This document shows, in pieces, positions 3,774-53,891 of a stretch of 64,000 nucleotides of DNA. Source of the stretch: Escherichia coli (GTDB taxonomy: Bacteria > Pseudomonadota > Gammaproteobacteria > Enterobacterales > Enterobacteriaceae); assembly GCF_965641715.1 (NCBI RefSeq), contig NZ_OZ282453.1; one strand, 5' to 3'. Position 1 is the first letter of the stretch; every line of letters starts with the position of its first letter. The translations under genes were made by a program, and so were the position numbers. Under the pieces are notes generated by a model. It was given only the letters and a program-made list of their open reading frames with translations. It ran no database searches and was not told where the DNA came from.

Positions 3774-5000
3774 TTATCTCACCAGCTTTTCGGCACGCTG
3801 GTGTTTGGCCTGATACATATTGTGATCGGCAAGCTCTTGTAATTTTTCCGCAGAGGCGTGCTCAATGGTCATCGCGTAACCAATGCTTAATGTCATGGTG
3901 GTCTGATGGCCATTATTAAGATCAAACGGGAGATTAAAGATTTGTGTCAGTGCTGAGCATATCTGCTGCACTTCAGATTCCGACTGTACATCATAGAGCA
4001 CCATAGCGAATTCATCGCCGCCCAGGCGGTATGCTTTATGTCGCAGCCCGCCAAATTCAGCTAACCGTTTTGCGATTTCAATCAAGACTCTATCGCCCGT
4101 CGCATGACCCCAGGTATCATTGATATATTTGAAATTATCGCCATCAAGAAATAGTAACGCCGACGTTTTTCGGGCATCGGAATTGTTCATCAACGTATTG
4201 ATGCCGCTACGAAACGCTGCGCGGTTAGCCAGCCCGGTTAATGGGTCATGTAGCGCGGTACGCAGAAGCTGCGCATTTTTGGCCTGTAAACGAAGCTGCC
4301 ACTCTTCCATTTCATCCAGCAGACTGTTGAAGTCGAGAGCGAAGCGGTGAAACTCAGCGATACGTTCTTCCGAAACTCGTCGGGAAAAATTGCGGTTGGA
4401 ACGCACATCATGTACGACATCGGTGATATTTTTCAGTGCTTCCACCAGGCCATTGTGCAAATGGCGGGTGAGGGTAATTGCGATTCCTGATGCCAGCAGA
4501 ATACAACCGGTCAGTACGGCGAGCGAAAACCAGATAAAATGGCTGATTGAACTGTCGCGAGCGGTTAAGCGTACTTCGCCAATGGTTTCACCATTGTGAC
4601 GAATCGGCTGAATGATGGGGGCAGGGAAGAGCCAGTGGCTTATGAAATTGCTGAAAGTATCGCCTGGATCCTTACGGGTGTAATGCCAGGATGCCAGAAT
4701 ATTTTGCTGCTTATCACGTACTTCTGCAGTTGAAAATTGCCCTTGCTGGCCCAGCGCTGCCAGTGTTTCAGTTGCTGCAGGGCCATCGGCAAAAACGACA
4801 GCTGCTTCCAGACTGTAAGTCATTGTTGCTGCTGTCAGTGCCAGGTTTTTTTGCGCGTACTGTTTCAGGGTCAGCACCGAGGTCACGGAAAGCAGCAACC
4901 AGATCAGCATCATAGTGATAAATATGCTGGTCATACTGATGTTGCGTAATGCTCTTTTAAACGTGGGGCGCTTATTAAGAGAATTATCGTTATCCATCAT
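3774..5000 (-). CDS. dgcN: Membrane diguanylate cyclase DgcN (YfiN)
   Basis: 408-aa ORF with TM segments, HAMP-like linker and GGDEF motif ([10 protein letters not shown]). Confidence 0.9.
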
Positions 5001-15046: not shown

Positions 15047-17869
15047 ATGACGGCAGAGTACATCAGGGACTGGCAACAACCGCGCCACGCAGTGGGACGT
15101 GAAGGAACGGGGATCCCCGTTCCTGAATCCGCGCTTTCCTCCTGGCTGGATGCCTACCGGGCAGAGAACGAGCGCCGCCAGGAAATGGCTGATGCGGCGT
15201 TCTCCGCCACGCCGCTGGGCAACCTGATTAATAAAAGCCTGGATGCACAGGAAAAACAGGACAAAACCATCACACTGGCAGGAGACGCCAGAAAACAGGT
15301 ACGCGGTGCGGTGGATGAAGCCATGGCCTCGCTGCGCCTGCTGCCGTCCTATCTGCGCGATCCGCTTATTCGCCACCTCTCCTTCCTGCGCAAAAAACAG
15401 GAAGCCGATCGCCGGAAAGGCAAAAAGAGCTGGCAGGCTGAACGCTACGCGCGCGGAACCCTGCGCAAAATATTCGAACGTCTGGACCGCACCGACCACC
15501 GCTGGCTGACACCGGGTTATCGCTCCCTTGCCGGACGCGAACGCCTGGATGATTTGCTTTACCTGCCGCAGCTCAACAAGCACCAGATACAGACGCTGGC
15601 CACCATGACGGCGGCGATGTTCAGCAGCACCTTCGAAAAACTCTGCGATGGCTTTGGCGCGACTGATGGCGAGCTGACCATGGATGTAACGCTGAAGGCG
15701 TATCAGATGCTGGCCCGCATGGCGTTACACCTGCACGCCATGCCTCCGCATTATGATGCACTGACAACAGACAAAGACCGGAGGAACGAACCGGACACGG
15801 AGCTGCTGCCGGGCGCAATCCTTCGCCTGACCTGTGCGGAATGGTGGAAACGCAAACTGTGGCTGTTACGTTGCGAGTGGCGGGAAGAACAACTCCGCGC
15901 CGCCTGTCTGGTTTCCAGAAAAACATCGCCCTATCTGAGCCAGGACGCGTTAAGCGAGTTTCGCGCACAGCGCGAGAAAACACGCGATTTCCTGAAAAGT
16001 TTCATGCTGGAAAACGAAGACGGGTTCACGATTGATCTCGAGACGGTGTATTACGCGGGAGTAAGTAACCCGGTTCATCGTAAGGCAGAAATGATGGCCA
16101 CCATGAAGGGGCTGGAACTTCTGGCCGAAGCCCGTGGCGACAAAGCGGTGTTTCTGACTGTCACCTGCCCGTCAAAATACCACGCCACAACAGAGAACGG
16201 TCATCCGAATCCCAAATGGAACGGGGCCACCATGCGCGACTCCAGCGATTACCTGGTTAACACGTTTTTTGCGGCGGTCCGCAAGAAACTGAACCGCGAC
16301 GGCCTGCGCTGGTATGGCATCCGCACGGTGGAGCCTCACCATGACGGCACCGTGCACTGGCATATGATGGTCTTTGCTCATCCGGAAGAAATCGACACCA
16401 TTGTGTCCCACACCCGCGATATTGCCATTCAGGAAGATCGTCACGAGCTGGGTGATGATATTACCCCACGCTTTAAGGCGGAGTACGTCGACGGCTCAAA
16501 AGGCACACCGACCAGCTACATCGCCACCTACATCGGGAAAAACCTGGACAGCCGTGCCGTGGATGGCATCGACCCGAAAACGGGCAAGCCACGCGTTGAC
16601 CACGAAACCGGAAAATCAATGGCCGAGAGCGTGGAACGCGCCATCGGCTGGGCGCGCCTTCATCGGGTCCGCCAGTTCCAGTTCTTTGGCATCCCCTCCC
16701 GTCAGGTGTGGCGTGAACTGCGCCGCCTTGCCAGCCAGATGGCTCGCAACCCGGAAGGACCGCAACGGCTGAAGGATGACGCAATGGACGCGGTTCTTGC
16801 TGCCGCTGATGCCGGATGTTTTGCCACCTACATAGAGAAACAGGGCGGCGTACTTGTTCCACGCAAGGACTACCTGATTCGCACCGCCTACGACCTCGCA
16901 GATGAGCTGAACGATTACGGTGAACAGAGCGTACAGATTTACGGGATCTGGTCACCGCTCATCGGGGAGTCTTCCCGCGTATGCACGCATCCGGACAACT
17001 GGAAGCTGGTAAGACGCAAACCGGAAGCGGAAGACAGCGCCCGCGAAAATGGTTTTGACCTTCAGGGCGGCCCTGCCGCCCCTTGGACTCGTGGCAATAA
17101 CTGTCCCCGTGTACAGGAAACAGGCAACAGCGGGACAGAACAGTCGAAAGAACGGCCAGCACCGTGGCCGCAGCTTCCTGACGGCGTTGACGTGAACGAA
17201 TGGATGCGCTCACTGAAACGGCACGAACGCCGGGCGCTGATGCGTTCGCTTCGTGACAAACAGGCAAAAAACAGCAGTGATGAAATGCAGAGCTGGACAC
17301 AGAGCCGCAAACAGCCACGGCCTTTGCCTGATAACCACGAATTACTCGCTAAAGAATGGCGGGAGTCTGCTGAATCTCTCGGCCTGCATATCGGTGAACA
17401 ACAGATGCAGCACCTGTTACGGGGCGGCAGTCTGTACGTTGACGGCAGCATCATTGCACCGCAGGGATTTGAAATTGTACGCAAACCGGATACCCGCCCG
17501 GACAGCCGAATCACGCAGCTCTGGCAGCGCCTGAGCCGTAATCATGGCGTAAGCAGCACGGAGATCCGCCATAACCCGGTCGCCAGCTATCTGGCACAGC
17601 TGGGGGCATCAGACCCTGAAGCCGCCGCACGCCTGGCATCCACACTTCAGCAGGACCAGAACACCATGAAAACACCCGTTACCGTGCTTTCTGACATGCT
17701 GCGCGCCATCCGCGACGCAGAGCACGCACAGAGAATCAGTGAAACCACTGAACGCGCCAGCCGCAAAGCAGACCTGCTGCGGGGTGGCCTGACCAGTGGA
17801 AACAAAAAACAGACAGAAACGGGATTCACAAATCCCATAAATGAGCAAAAAACGTGCCGCGATATATGA
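15047..17869 (+). CDS. A: P2 gpA-type rolling-circle replication initiator (HUH endonuclease) with a long C-terminal extension
   Basis: HUH-like VHWHMMVF and YIATYIGK tyrosine motif; 940 aa versus ~760 aa remembered for P2 A. Confidence 0.85.
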   Translation: MTAEYIRDWQQPRHAVGREGTGIPVPESALSSWLDAYRAENERRQEMADAAFSATPLGNLINKSLDAQEKQDKTITLAGDARKQVRGAVDEAMASLRLLPSYLRDPLIRHLSFLRKKQEADRRKGKKSWQAERYARGTLRKIFERLDRTDHRWLTPGYRSLAGRERLDDLLYLPQLNKHQIQTLATMTAAMFSSTFEKLCDGFGATDGELTMDVTLKAYQMLARMALHLHAMPPHYDALTTDKDRRNEPDTELLPGAILRLTCAEWWKRKLWLLRCEWREEQLRAACLVSRKTSPYLSQDALSEFRAQREKTRDFLKSFMLENEDGFTIDLETVYYAGVSNPVHRKAEMMATMKGLELLAEARGDKAVFLTVTCPSKYHATTENGHPNPKWNGATMRDSSDYLVNTFFAAVRKKLNRDGLRWYGIRTVEPHHDGTVHWHMMVFAHPEEIDTIVSHTRDIAIQEDRHELGDDITPRFKAEYVDGSKGTPTSYIATYIGKNLDSRAVDGIDPKTGKPRVDHETGKSMAESVERAIGWARLHRVRQFQFFGIPSRQVWRELRRLASQMARNPEGPQRLKDDAMDAVLAAADAGCFATYIEKQGGVLVPRKDYLIRTAYDLADELNDYGEQSVQIYGIWSPLIGESSRVCTHPDNWKLVRRKPEAEDSARENGFDLQGGPAAPWTRGNNCPRVQETGNSGTEQSKERPAPWPQLPDGVDVNEWMRSLKRHERRALMRSLRDKQAKNSSDEMQSWTQSRKQPRPLPDNHELLAKEWRESAESLGLHIGEQQMQHLLRGGSLYVDGSIIAPQGFEIVRKPDTRPDSRITQLWQRLSRNHGVSSTEIRHNPVASYLAQLGASDPEAAARLASTLQQDQNTMKTPVTVLSDMLRAIRDAEHAQRISETTERASRKADLLRGGLTSGNKKQTETGFTNPINEQKTCRDI

Positions 17870-17917
17870 AGCGCGCACAAAACAGGCAAAAGCGGGATTT
17901 AAAAATCCTGTAAACGA
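17802..17917 (+). repeat. Two ~42-bp imperfect direct repeats, each with a palindrome (candidate parC / ParR operator)
   Basis: acaaaaaacagacagaaacGGGATTCACAAATCCCataaatga (17802-17844) versus acaaaacaggcaaaagcGGGATTTAAAAATCCtgtaaacga (17877-17917). Confidence 0.35.
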
Positions 17918-17945: not shown

Positions 17946-18905
17946 ATGAAAATTTGTATCGACGACGGCTCCACCAACATCAAGCTGGCATGGACTGAGA
18001 ACGGCGAACGCCGCAACGCCATCAGCCCGAACAGCTTCAAGTCGGAATGGTCTGCGCCGTTCGGTGGCTCGCAGCCCGCGAACTACATGCTTGATGGCGT
18101 GCGCTATGGTTTTGATCCGGTCAGCGATCGCTTTGTCCAGACGACCGACACGCAATACCAGTACAGCGATGTGAATGTCATTGCCATTCATCACGCGCTG
18201 GTCAAATCAGGCATCACGCCACAGGAGGTGGATGTGGTTGTCACCCTGCCATTGAGCGAGTATTTCGACACAAACGCACAGCCGGACATGGCCAACATCA
18301 GCCGCAAAAAAGCGAACGTTATGCGCCCGGTGGAGTACCAGAACGGCGAAACATTCACTATCCGTAACGTACGGGTTATGCCTGAATCCATTCCGGCTGG
18401 CTTTAAAGCACTGGCTGACATGAGTCCGCTTGAATCCCTGCTGATTGTGGATTTGGGCGGAACCACACTGGATGTGGCAAAGGTTCAGGGGCAACTGGCA
18501 GGTATCAGCCAGGTGTTTTGCGATCCACACGTAGGCGTTTCCCTGATGGCCGATGCCGTACTGTCGGTGATGGCCACTAACGGTATGCGTATCAGTCACC
18601 ACATCGCCAATACCATTATCGAACATCGCCATGATGAAGCCTGGTTGCGCCAGCACATCCACAATGACGCGCATTACGCCAGCCTGATGGCGGTTATTCG
18701 TGAAAAGGAAGAAACACTGAAACAACGCGTGATCCGCGCGCTGGCGGTTTTTTCGGGTTACGGGCGGGTGATGGTTGTCGGTGGCGGGGCGGAGATTGTG
18801 GCACCCGCTATCCGCGAAGCCTGCGGAGTTAATGCGACTTTCATCGCGGACGGGGTGCCACAGTTTGCTCTGGTTAATGGGCTGTACGCAATGGACAAGG
18901 AGTAA
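17946..18905 (+). CDS. parM: ParM/StbA actin-like plasmid-segregation ATPase
   Basis: Full-length similarity to remembered R1 ParM (IDDGSTNIKL, ISPNSFK, YSDVNVIAIHHAL, RKKAN, VMPESIPAG, DLGGTTLD, GGGAE). Confidence 0.85.
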   Translation: MKICIDDGSTNIKLAWTENGERRNAISPNSFKSEWSAPFGGSQPANYMLDGVRYGFDPVSDRFVQTTDTQYQYSDVNVIAIHHALVKSGITPQEVDVVVTLPLSEYFDTNAQPDMANISRKKANVMRPVEYQNGETFTIRNVRVMPESIPAGFKALADMSPLESLLIVDLGGTTLDVAKVQGQLAGISQVFCDPHVGVSLMADAVLSVMATNGMRISHHIANTIIEHRHDEAWLRQHIHNDAHYASLMAVIREKEETLKQRVIRALAVFSGYGRVMVVGGGAEIVAPAIREACGVNATFIADGVPQFALVNGLYAMDKE

Positions 18906-18909
18906 ACCA

Positions 18910-19221
18910 ATGACGACTCCAACCAGACGGATAAGTTTCTATCTGAAGCCCGCCGCCGTCAAGAACGAAGGTGAAGCATGCGCCTGGCTGGACAGCCTTA
19001 CACCAGAAGCGCGCAAAAGCGGCCAACGCGTGGCTTTTCTGGCCGGGCTGGCACTTCTGAAAATGAATCCGGCAGAGGCTTACCGACTGGCTGCATGGGC
19101 TGATGATGAAGCGTTATCAGTGACACAAACCAGGACAGAACGCCCCGCGTCACAGCCAGTATCAACCGCACAGATAACCAGTCAGATGGCCGGAAATATC
19201 CGGGCGTTATTTCCCGAATAA
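18910..19221 (+). CDS. parR: ParR-like centromere-binding adaptor
   Basis: ATG 18910 follows aaggag, 4 nt after the parM stop; ISFYLKP...LDSLTPEARKSGQRVAFLAGLAL and C-terminal IRALFPE resemble R1 ParR. Confidence 0.7.
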   Translation: MTTPTRRISFYLKPAAVKNEGEACAWLDSLTPEARKSGQRVAFLAGLALLKMNPAEAYRLAAWADDEALSVTQTRTERPASQPVSTAQITSQMAGNIRALFPE

Positions 19222-19284
19222 CACAACATCAGGGCGCATCCGCCCTGATGACTTTAACCCGGGAACATAAACAAGGGGGACACA

Positions 19285-19620
19285 ATGCAACGCATTGACA
19301 GAGAAAAAGCGCAGCGACTGATTGAGCGGATGGAAGCGCTGGCGAAAGAAGAAAATGTCAACATCCAAAAAATAGCTGAATGTGGCCAGATAGTTCTTCG
19401 TCGTGAAAAAGACCTCAAACAACTGATGTCTGGCGAAACCAGCAAAACATGGACTTCAGGTGAGGAGACGATTTATTGCAGCTTCTGCAATAAATCCCAG
19501 TACGAAGTCACAAAGGTGATTGCCGGACCGTCTGTTTACATCTGCAATGAGTGCGTTGATTTGTGCAATGAAGTTATCAGGAGAGAAGTGACAGACCATG
19601 AAGAAAAAACGCATGAATGA
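19285..19620 (+). CDS. Orphan ClpX N-terminal zinc-binding-domain (zf-C4_ClpX) protein with no AAA+ module
   Basis: Residues ~60-101, [39 protein letters not shown], versus E. coli Clp[40 protein letters not shown]. Confidence 0.85.
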
Positions 19621-19786
19621 CGAATTTGACGGCTTTTAATTTTATCGGGGCGCACTGTCGCCCTGCATGGAGAAAAACAATAAAAAAGATGAATAACTGC
19701 TCATGTCAGACGCGCTGCGGGCAAGTCTGGCACCCTGCCCTGTCTCCGCAAAGGCTGTTGTCTTAACACGACAGAGTATGCCAGCA

Positions 19787-20194
19787 TTAAATATAATCTT
19801 CTTCGTAGTCGCTGATTAATTCATTGCCATAATCAGACAGCAATTTCAAAGCAAAGGTAACTTCCTCAAGGGTAGCTATCCCCATTGCTGAAAACACCGT
19901 TAATTTAACCAGCAGCAGGGAGTTTGAAAGTTCGGAAGAGTTCATCATTAAAAATATTGATGCAGCCTGAAAAGCTGTGCGTTTATTCCCATCATGAAAG
20001 GCATGAGCCTTGGCTATACCAATCAAATACATAGCAGCCAGAGCATGAATATCATCAACCCCTTCATAGTAGTGTAGTGTCCTGACGCGATTTAAAGCAC
20101 CTTCAAGTAGCCCGTCATTGGCATTTCCGCTCTGGGGTAAAGTTTCAGCATGGATACGTTCTACTTGTTCTTTTGACAAAAACACTATGTCCAT
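19787..20194 (-). CDS. doc: Doc (death-on-curing) Fic-fold toxin
   Basis: Doc signature HAFHDGNKRTAF; 135 aa; start overlaps the antitoxin stop (TGATG). Confidence 0.85.
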   Translation of the reverse strand: MDIVFLSKEQVERIHAETLPQSGNANDGLLEGALNRVRTLHYYEGVDDIHALAAMYLIGIAKAHAFHDGNKRTAFQAASIFLMMNSSELSNSLLLVKLTVFSAMGIATLEEVTFALKLLSDYGNELISDYEEDYI

Positions 20195-20550
20195 CAGTTA
20201 TCCTCAAGCTTTTTAATGATATCCGCATGTTTTTCTCTTGTACGCTTCATTGCATCTTCAAAAGACAATCCTTTTTTTCTCTGTGCGACAAGAGCTGGAT
20301 GACGTTTTTCCAGATCTCTCACTGCATTTATTAAGAGTGGTTGCTTCATTTTGTTTATTTGATCCCGCAGTTTTTTGGTTTTGCCAAGGACAGCCCGTAT
20401 TTCAGGACTAAGATCAGAACCAGCAAGAACAACATCCTTCCCTCCCTGCGCCGTGATAACGACACTGCCACCGGAAGAAAGGTAATCCAGAATTTCACTC
20501 AGGTTCTCACGAAATTCATCATCAGTTACAGTTTTCATATTCATTTCCAT
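20194..20550 (-). CDS. Phd/YefM-type antitoxin (extended C-terminus)
   Basis: Upstream of and coupled to doc; N-terminus MKTVTDDEFRENLSEILDYLSSGGSVVIT is Phd/YefM-like; the true start may be 20538. Confidence 0.7.
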   Translation of the reverse strand: MEMNMKTVTDDEFRENLSEILDYLSSGGSVVITAQGGKDVVLAGSDLSPEIRAVLGKTKKLRDQINKMKQPLLINAVRDLEKRHPALVAQRKKGLSFEDAMKRTREKHADIIKKLEDN

Positions 20551-20624
20551 TATGCACGCCCATAACGTAAGTATAACGGCTTGTTGGGCAGTAATAACAC
20601 CGCCATATTTTCATTTTATACACC

Positions 20625-20650
20625 GCACAATAGTGCACAAATTTGCACAA
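20625..20650 (-). promoter_or_regulatory. 3 x TTGTGC (GCACAA on the plus strand) at exact 10-bp phasing next to TATAAAAT: candidate phd-doc promoter/operator
   Basis: gcacaa at 20625, 20635 and 20645; minus strand reads TTGTGCaaatTTGTGCactaTTGTGCggtgTATAAAAT. Confidence 0.45.
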
Positions 20651-53815: not shown

Positions 53816-53891
53816 GTCCCCTTCGTCTAGAGGCCCAGGACACCGCCCTTTCACGGCGGTAACAGGGGTTCGAATCCCCTAGGGGACGCCA
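53816..53891 (+). tRNA. gltW: tRNA-Glu (UUC) in the 16S-23S spacer
   Basis: gtccccttcgtctagaggcccagg...cccTTTCACgg...ggttcgaatcccctaggggacgcca; 76 nt. Confidence 0.95.

Follow-up and report, generated by a model that had tools for sequence, protein, structure and literature searches.

What would a P2-like prophage gain from encoding the docking domain of a host protease without the protease itself? The question is raised by a gene located at positions 19285-19620 (plus strand) of a 64,000-nucleotide stretch of Escherichia coli DNA (assembly GCF_965641715.1, contig NZ_OZ282453.1; hereafter, the window), within a P2-like prophage of the Xuanwuvirus P88 type that resides in the chromosome. This open reading frame (ORF) starts with ATG and encodes a protein of 111 amino acids (aa) that is currently named "ClpX C4-type zinc finger protein" in RefSeq. 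We found it to be an orphan ClpX N-domain devoid of the ATPase module, that is, a protein with a genuine zf-C4_ClpX domain that is not a ClpX. The ClpXP protease controls phage replication initiators (lambda O), Mu transposition, antitoxins, the SOS response, and the general stress sigma factor. Phage modulators of proteases are known for Lon, and we found no report of a phage protein imitating the docking domain of ClpX.

The zinc-binding domain (ZBD) occupies residues 63-100 (19471-19584, plus strand), as delineated with Pfam, PDB chains, Foldseek, and comparison with ClpX of E. coli K-12. The Pfam model zf-C4_ClpX (PF06689) matched residues 64-99 at 62.6 bits (gathering cut-off 27, E = 3e-17), and no other Pfam model scored above its cut-off on the protein. 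In a phmmer search against PDB chains, the protein matched the E. coli ClpX ZBD (1ovx and 2ds5, E = 2e-19 to 9e-19), alongside two weak matches to RanBP2 (E = 0.07 and 0.6). When the alignment is anchored by codons on the first CxxC motif, 30 of 38 residues are identical to residues 14-51 of K-12 ClpX (30 of 40 over a longer stretch), and C65, C68, C87, and C90, all four invariant across the family, are in register with C15, C18, C37, and C40 of ClpX. AlphaFold2 (AF2) modeling of the single chain from an 8-sequence alignment yielded a mean predicted local distance difference test (pLDDT) score of 79 and a predicted template modeling score (pTM) of 0.39. The zinc finger of this model superposes on 2ds5, 2ds6, 2ds7, and 2ds8 at a root mean square deviation of 0.6-0.8 Å, with 72-78% identity (Foldseek); a check of the treble-clef fold gave template modeling scores, normalized to the target, of 0.86-0.91 for 2ds5-2ds8 and a deviation of 1.6 Å from the 1ovx nuclear magnetic resonance model. 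No AAA+ module was found in the 111-aa protein: the ClpX equivalog models TIGR00382 and NF003745 reached 49.3 bits (cut-off 370.75) and 48.4 bits (cut-off 359), respectively, and they cover the protein only at profile positions ~3-53. Compared to the N-domain of E. coli ClpX, the phage ZBD has the same four-cysteine treble clef, with 75-79% identity and an identical 16-residue core, but it is unattached to an AAA+ unfoldase and is located at the C-terminus rather than at the N-terminus, behind a phage-specific helical hairpin and a linker.

The N-terminal hairpin (residues 1-48, 19285-19428, plus strand) was defined from the predicted AF2 helices (residues 6-23 and 27-48), HMMER matches, conserved residues, and substitution rates. 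The flexible linker (residues 49-62, 19429-19470, plus strand) was recognized by pLDDT, which is below 50 at residues 52-59, and by alignment indels, its length differing by up to about 14 alignment columns between family members. In the family alignment, E17, E23, and L38 are invariant, and R39, R40, D43, L47, and G50 are nearly invariant. The N-terminal region matched nothing in Pfam, and Foldseek searches against PDB and BFVD matched the zinc finger only, with no structural relative for the hairpin. Over its full length, the protein belongs to phrog_6797 (193.3 bits; residues 1-105 aligned to positions 5-106 of the 107-position profile), an uncharacterized family of enterobacterial temperate phages, to which the N-terminal 62 aa alone matched at 95 bits. 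An exhaustive HMMER search of residues 1-62 against 1.84 billion representatives produced 11 matches; the short ones that were read are phrog_6797 members or truncated copies, with no relatives outside this family among them, and one match outside those read is a 1,212-aa protein with six matched stretches.

The sequence-only reading of this locus had described a C-terminal stretch of ~41 residues, about 75% identical to the ClpX ZBD and including all four cysteines, with no AAA+ module, and had proposed a zf-C4_ClpX profile search as a check. The Pfam match, the comparison with K-12 ClpX, and equivalog scores of 48-49 bits against cut-offs of 359-371 bear out this description. The preceding 60 residues, described there as a charged helical region without an ATPase, are indeed helical and contain no ATPase; they are not a generic charged region, though, but a conserved family-specific domain. 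That reading also knew of no characterized function for such a protein in P2-like phages, and our literature search yielded none, finding neither a characterized orphan phage ZBD nor a paper characterizing phrog_6797. As for the hairpin, residues 37-41 (VLRRE, 19393-19407) comprise the invariant or nearly invariant L38-R39-R40 of helix 2 and loosely resemble LRVVK, the XB motif of SspB that is bound by the ZBD. This resemblance raises the idea of VLRRE as a candidate intramolecular or inter-subunit pseudo-ligand of the ZBD.

Both the hairpin and the ZBD are under purifying selection, with non-synonymous change far below synonymous change. In comparisons among family members, the non-synonymous (pN) and synonymous (pS) values for the N-terminal domain were 0.37-0.49 and 0.76-0.92, respectively, and the non-synonymous to synonymous ratio (dN/dS) of the ZBD was mostly 0.1-0.25. 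In members that are only 35-50% identical overall, the ZBD is identical to E. coli ClpX at 27-34 of 38 positions (71-89%), the allele from Salmonella reaching 34 of 38. The same codon is used at only 12-17 of these 27-34 ClpX-identical residues, and nucleotide identity is 64-77%. Considering that the ZBD stays this close to ClpX while its synonymous sites are nearly randomized, the phage domain is, judging from these sequence patterns, a case of maintained mimicry of host ClpX rather than of recent capture, and a mimic obliged to retain its host partners would be expected to show such conservation. Recent capture from the host clpX gene was ruled out directly for the window protein by the ZBD nucleotide identity to K-12 (67%), the matching third positions (17 of 40), and the codons shared at identical residues (13 of 30). 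Genuine gammaproteobacterial ClpX proteins, for example, those of Pseudomonas, are also ~75% identical to the phage ZBD, so the phage domain is within the range of true orthologs. The core of the ZBD (positions 29-45) matches genuine ClpX and is unchanged in the P2-type alleles; differences from the sampled ClpX sequences, a sample biased by word-seeded retrieval, are concentrated at positions 19, 23-28, 46, and 49-50. The helix that makes much of the dimer interface (PMC5890618) differs from ClpX at only four positions, mostly by conservative changes. Between the gene in the window (19285-19617) and the E. coli P0015 allele (L009, 6001-6330), the ZBD half shows a synonymous divergence of 0.27 and the N-terminal half one of 0.77, which suggests that the gene is an intragenic mosaic generated by recombination inside the linker.

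The family was found in P2-like prophages and in phage-plasmids of ~90-110 kb. Among complete E. coli genomes, 111 of 5,426 (~2%) carry the ZBD gene. In PLSDB, 94 plasmid records match at least 80% of the gene's length, the listed ones being mostly non-mobilizable replicons of ~77-115 kb from Escherichia, Salmonella, and Shigella. In the phage-plasmids D6 and PhiR41_1, the gene is embedded among Ead/Ea22-type early accessory genes. One contig with an apparently full-length match to the 111-aa protein (L119) was rejected as a genuine tig-clpP-clpX locus, and others among the matches listed are genuine clpX. GenBank and older RefSeq entries often mislabel the family as "carboxylate--amine ligase" (P88 gp19, D6 gp034, and many NCBI entries).

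The reading that we favor, with a probability of about 0.4, is that the protein is a dimeric decoy or anti-adaptor that would compete with the N-domain of ClpX for N-domain-dependent partners. The phage ZBD would dimerize as in ClpX and would keep the peptide-binding surface for the XB motif of SspB, RssB, lambda O-type initiators, FtsZ, and MuA-type complexes. Because the phage protein has no unfoldase, it would compete with ClpX N-domains and selectively damp N-domain-dependent ClpX and ClpXP reactions, whereas pore-recognized degrons such as ssrA would be unaffected. The charged face of the hairpin (E17, E23, R39, R40, and D43) could make an additional, phage-chosen contact and thereby lend the decoy specificity or avidity. 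The benefit would go to the entire phage or prophage rather than to the adjoining toxin-antitoxin (TA) pair; we count in favor of the decoy that the gene stands alone, with changing neighbors, in both P2-like prophages and phage-plasmids.

This mechanism, which the sequence-only reading had raised as a possible protease decoy, has a direct biochemical precedent in vitro. Free E. coli ZBD at 5-20 µM inhibits the RssB-mediated breakdown of sigma-S by 0.6 µM ClpXP, and it crosslinks as a dimer and to RssB; with ClpX lacking the ZBD, sigma-S is no longer degraded via RssB, and ssrA substrates are unaffected (Micevski et al. 2020, PMC7226468). XB-containing degrader peptides bind the isolated ZBD with dissociation constants of 35-82 nM (PMC12373786), and lambda O, FtsZ, and the adaptor SspB are all engaged at the ZBD dimer (PMC7857489). 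The isolated recombinant ZBD thus acts as a free dimer that titrates N-domain-dependent adaptors and substrates (PMC7226468), which is the mechanism proposed for the phage protein, but it is a laboratory fragment, whereas the phage protein comes from a gene shaped by natural selection and has a further conserved module. Given this precedent and the indirect support from the selection patterns, the decoy is plausible. Wojtyra in 2003 and Thibault in 2006 are also said to have used the isolated ClpX ZBD as a competitor in vitro.

Several observations weigh against a decoy. Inhibition by the ZBD in vitro took a ~10-30-fold molar excess over ClpXP (PMC7226468), so a decoy would need high expression or extra affinity contributed by the hairpin. 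We infer the retention of the binding site from overall identity alone, and the AF2 model, given its shallow alignment and low pTM, is silent on oligomers. The family-typical substitution G19N lies in the first zinc knuckle, at a position where G is found in 98% of the sampled ClpX sequences, a sample biased by word-seeded retrieval. Furthermore, a loop that is invariant elsewhere (AGPSVY) reads AGDAVF in the phage-plasmid branch, so not all members are strict mimics. As a possible target of the decoy, the ClpXP-dependent defense system CmdTAC was considered and dropped: it uses a C-terminal Ala-Ala degron, which we took to be pore-recognized like ssrA, so that a ZBD decoy should not affect it. 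If the protein is a decoy, it would be a selective natural inhibitor of the N-domain-dependent functions of ClpX, a tool for dissecting adaptor-mediated proteolysis, and a new way for prophages to change host stress physiology or to exclude rivals.

Such a protein would be akin to the phage and prophage modulators of AAA+ proteolysis and to the ClpXP anti-adaptors, the new part being that it copies the protease's own docking domain. Like the proposed decoy, the RssB inhibitors IraD, IraM, and IraP are small, are in part horizontally acquired, and block one client class while leaving the protease itself uninhibited; a common docking site on RssB has been proposed for the ZBD and IraD (PMC7226468). 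The Ira proteins, however, bind the adaptor via their own folds, not by copying a receptor domain, and have no Pfam relation to the phage protein, for which Pfam, with zf-C4_ClpX as the sole match above cut-off, indicated no membership in the SspB, RssB, or Ira families. Among phage proteins, T4 PinA and T7 Gp4.5 act on Lon, and lambda RexB acts on ClpP-dependent antitoxin decay. These are phage genes that alter host proteolysis to the benefit of the phage, as proposed here, but their sequences are unrelated, they affect other proteases or steps, and, to our knowledge, none has been found to copy a protease domain.

Other temperate phages encode short proteins made up largely of a ClpX-like zinc finger, in each case near replication genes: phrog_12435 (labeled "protease"), phrog_5259, gp081 of Pseudomonas phage PP9W2, which comes after dnaB, and an ORF of Klebsiella phage ST846-OXA48phi9.2. 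None of these ZBD-only ORFs has the N-terminal hairpin, their divergence from ClpX is much greater (for example, IKGPSALIC and IAGPGVSIC), and they, too, are uncharacterized. Since unrelated ZBD-only ORFs are found beside replication genes in other temperate phages, orphan ZBDs are a recurrent, unexplained theme among these phages, and we count this recurrence in favor of a decoy. The Klebsiella phage ORF (L012 3001-3222, plus strand; MK416022.1 13044-13265) is an unannotated 73-aa ClpX-like zinc-finger ORF located 15 bp 5' of a replication gene, where the deposited annotation has a minus-strand hypothetical ORF instead.

Instead of acting as a decoy, the protein might use the ClpX fold independently of ClpX, a rather unlikely alternative under which the ZBD would be a zinc-stabilized dimerization scaffold and the hairpin would have an unrelated activity, for example, in regulating ParMR segregation, replication, or a transcription factor. 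The model for such use is CsfB (Gin), an anti-sigma factor of Bacillus subtilis (PDB 5N7Y), which is a small, dimeric treble-clef zinc finger like the N-terminal domain of ClpX that serves an unrelated function (PMC5890618). Furthermore, cyanobacterial sigma factors carry zf-C4_ClpX as an accessory domain (PMC11119718), and the orphan proteins P0059 and P0086 combine zf-C4_ClpX with other C-terminal regions. However, CsfB is only ~20% identical to ClpX, shows another interface pattern, and its homology to ClpX is doubted by its authors (PMC5890618), in contrast to the 71-89% identity of the phage ZBD, which a mere scaffold need not maintain as synonymous sites become randomized. Pfam and PDB sequence searches detected no relationship of the 111-aa protein to CsfB/Gin.

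A role in partition, as one form of the scaffold, draws on the gene order. Directly 5' of the ZBD gene is parR (StbB/Plasmid_stab_B; 18910-19221, plus strand; Pfam PF10784 at 85.9 bits and a match to phrog_2515), preceded by parM (StbA; 17946-18905, plus strand), which encodes an actin-like segregation ATPase (Pfam StbA_N at 274 bits, ParM C-terminal model at 229 bits). Among the 41 close loci in IMG/VR, those with a ZBD protein at least 90% identical to that of the window, parM-parR is found upstream of the ZBD gene in all 40 that are evaluable. A second, deeply diverged allele pair (L078) keeps the parM-parR-ZBD linkage as well, with identities of 97% for ParM, 56% for ParR, and 35% for the ZBD protein. 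Against a tie to ParMR, the partition genes are absent beside the ZBD gene in many family members, namely, those of Salmonella, E. coli P0015, L055/56, L073/86, and the phage-plasmids; there are also many P88-like phages in which parMR is present but the ZBD gene is not. The conserved upstream parM-parR did not figure in the sequence-only reading, nor did the hotspot location described below.

We also regard it as unlikely that the protein is a specificity-swapping receptor or adaptor, with the phage ZBD heterodimerizing with the N-domain of ClpX, or docking at its site on the ring, such that targets bound by the hairpin would be delivered for unfolding or degradation. The architecture, in which a binding module is joined by a variable flexible tether to a ClpX-related docking module, is similar to that of tethering adaptors, and both the invariant charged surface residues of the hairpin and the near identity of the dimer-interface helix to that of ClpX are compatible with this possibility. 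Exchange between ClpX and the phage ZBD should, however, be disfavored by the high local concentration of N-domains in the hexamer and by the ZBD homodimer, which Wojtyra et al. reportedly found in 2003 to be very stable; furthermore, the hairpin has no known target and no homologs found outside phrog_6797.

The genomic location suggests another kind of benefit. On the plus strand, the gene for the gpA replication endonuclease (15047-17869) is followed by parM, parR, and the ZBD gene, beyond which doc, phd, the portal gene (gpQ), and the large terminase gene are encoded on the minus strand. In P2-like phages, the ZBD gene without exception shares the strand of gpA and lies distal to it, inside the gpA-portal interval. 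The gpA-gpQ interval is a diversity hotspot of P2-like phages in which anti-phage systems are enriched; 1,650 arrangements were counted among 18,150 loci (Rousset et al. 2022, PMC9122126). The GC content is 0.54-0.60 in gpA and parMR, 0.44-0.47 in the ZBD gene, and 0.40-0.42 in doc-phd; the ZBD gene and doc-phd are, by composition, both imported cargo and distinct from one another.

As low-GC cargo of a hotspot rich in anti-phage systems, the ZBD gene could encode a prophage exclusion factor, that is, a dominant-negative ClpX N-domain that in the lysogen would block phages dependent on the N-domain of ClpX, such as Mu-like phages, whose MuA transpososomes are remodeled by ClpX (PMC7857489). 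This is quite improbable, given that the ZBD protein has no match among the PADLOC-DB 2.0 defense models at E ≤ 0.01 (nor do ParM, ParR, or Phd), that its gene lies on the early-operon strand with no promoter of its own detected, so that its expression in the lysogen is conjectural, and that the phage-plasmid copies are surrounded by ea-type early accessory genes rather than by defense islands. The hotspot survey itself lists "StbA + Plasmid_stab_B + zf-C4_ClpX + hypothetical" in Table S5A without comment, and its main text is silent on zf-C4_ClpX (PMC9122126). More generally, it seems unlikely that the copied docking domain is a weapon, be it a dominant-negative decoy that is produced from the P2 defense hotspot and shuts out ClpX-dependent competitors such as Mu-like phages or a swapped receptor that redirects the host protease via a phage-chosen module; if it is, it would be the first natural example of control of an AAA+ protease by receptor-domain mimicry.

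The sequence-only reading had recognized the phd-doc module next to the ZBD gene and had suggested a functional tie to the Phd-like antitoxin. The module is present: doc (19787-20194, minus strand; TIGR01550 DOC_P1 at 53.6 bits, cut-off 38.65; Pfam Fic) encodes a Fic-fold toxin and is convergent with the ZBD gene, and the same cassette contains the gene for a 118-aa Phd/YefM-like antitoxin (20194-20550, minus strand; PF02604 at 29.2 bits, cut-off 29.8; RefSeq Phd/YefM). The functional tie is not supported, doc-phd being a real but not a conserved neighbor. The ZBD gene, doc, and phd are contiguous in 17 of the 111 ZBD-bearing complete E. coli genomes, and the pair is missing in 94. In the close IMG/VR loci, the ZBD gene is followed by doc-phd in 4, by gp20 in 27, and by other genes in 10, so that 37 of the 41 lack the pair. 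P88 has the ZBD gene without doc-phd, and the divergent alleles from Salmonella (43%), E. coli P0015 (53%), L055/56, and L073/86 lie between gpA and the portal gene with neither TA nor parMR; in D6 and SSU5-like phage-plasmids, no TA adjoins the ZBD gene. Conversely, an identical doc-phd cassette is located directly between gpA and the portal gene, without parMR or the ZBD gene, in a P88-like phage (L094), and relatives of doc-phd without the ZBD gene were detected in nine more loci (L098, on the downstream side only, L099, and L101-L107).

P88 is 97.8% identical to the window up to the stop codon of the ZBD gene and then diverges. Pairwise DNA alignment places a recombination junction at the ATGA stop/start overlap (19617-19620), with megablast matches ending at query position 396, which corresponds to window position 19617; from there, P88 continues with gp20 and the window with doc-phd. 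The low-GC doc-phd cassette (19617-20650) replaced gp20-gp22 of P88 by recombination at this overlap. In most close relatives, the ATG of P88 gp20 overlaps the stop codon of the ZBD gene, and elsewhere, other genes occupy this place. No constant partner gene was found among the neighbors tested, which belong to PHROGs of unknown function or have no match; the sole exception is a weak PHROG match (E ~1e-9) of a divergent minus-strand ORF in L005. Such replacement takes place in a known high-turnover hotspot (PMC9122126).

One further juxtaposition of doc-phd with the ZBD gene was found in L075, a distant P2-like phage (identities of 35% for gpA, 35% for the ZBD protein, and 58% for Doc), where doc-phd is upstream and divergent, as opposed to convergent in the window. 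Between phd and the ZBD gene, L075 retains a parR pseudogene remnant with in-frame stops (4700-4990), indicating an ancestral parM-parR-ZBD locus into which doc-phd was later inserted. We read this second, independent insertion beside the ZBD gene as hotspot co-occupancy, a weak link being conceivable. That the ZBD protein is a third phd-doc component, which would tune ClpXP degradation of the Phd-like antitoxin so that, for example, Doc is not released during lytic growth of the phage, is very improbable: P1 Phd was reportedly shown by Lehnherr and Yarmolinsky in 1995 to be a ClpXP substrate, the two loci adjoin in the window and in L075, and D6 carries both, ~7.6 kb apart, but the pair is usually missing beside the ZBD gene, the cassette occurs without it, P1 itself has phd-doc and no ZBD gene, and the two differ in GC content and orientation, the cassette having replaced gp20-22 of P88 at the stop codon.

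With regard to expression, the ZBD gene is preceded by a Shine-Dalgarno-like AAGGGGG (19273-19279, plus strand; read from the sequence) 5 nt 5' of its ATG, and no sigma-70-like promoter was detected in front of it. Considering that the gene lies on the gpA strand and that no plus-strand terminator follows parR, it is probably co-transcribed with parM-parR or within the early operon. Between parR and the ZBD gene lies a GC-rich hairpin of 10 bp (19227-19250), kept in P88, that is terminator-like on the minus strand only, where it is followed by a T-run, and that may keep leftward transcripts, late or TA, from running into parMR in antisense orientation.

About one-fourth of P2-like phages have a putative partition system, for which a role in maintenance in a plasmid state has been suggested (Rousset et al. 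2022, PMC9122126). In the window, a complete ParM/ParR type II partition module (17946-19221) is contained in an integrated P2-like prophage, and relatives of the ZBD gene are otherwise found on phage-plasmids. Across the end of gpA and the gpA-parM spacer, there are two 42-nt direct repeats (17803-17844 and 17876-17917) that are 79% identical and each contain a palindrome of the GGGATT-N6-AATCCC type; these repeats are a candidate parC-like centromere or ParR operator of the prophage parMR. The only tRNA gene in the window, tRNA-Glu(UUC) at 53816-53891, is unrelated to the ZBD gene and presumably lies in the spacer of a ribosomal RNA operon.

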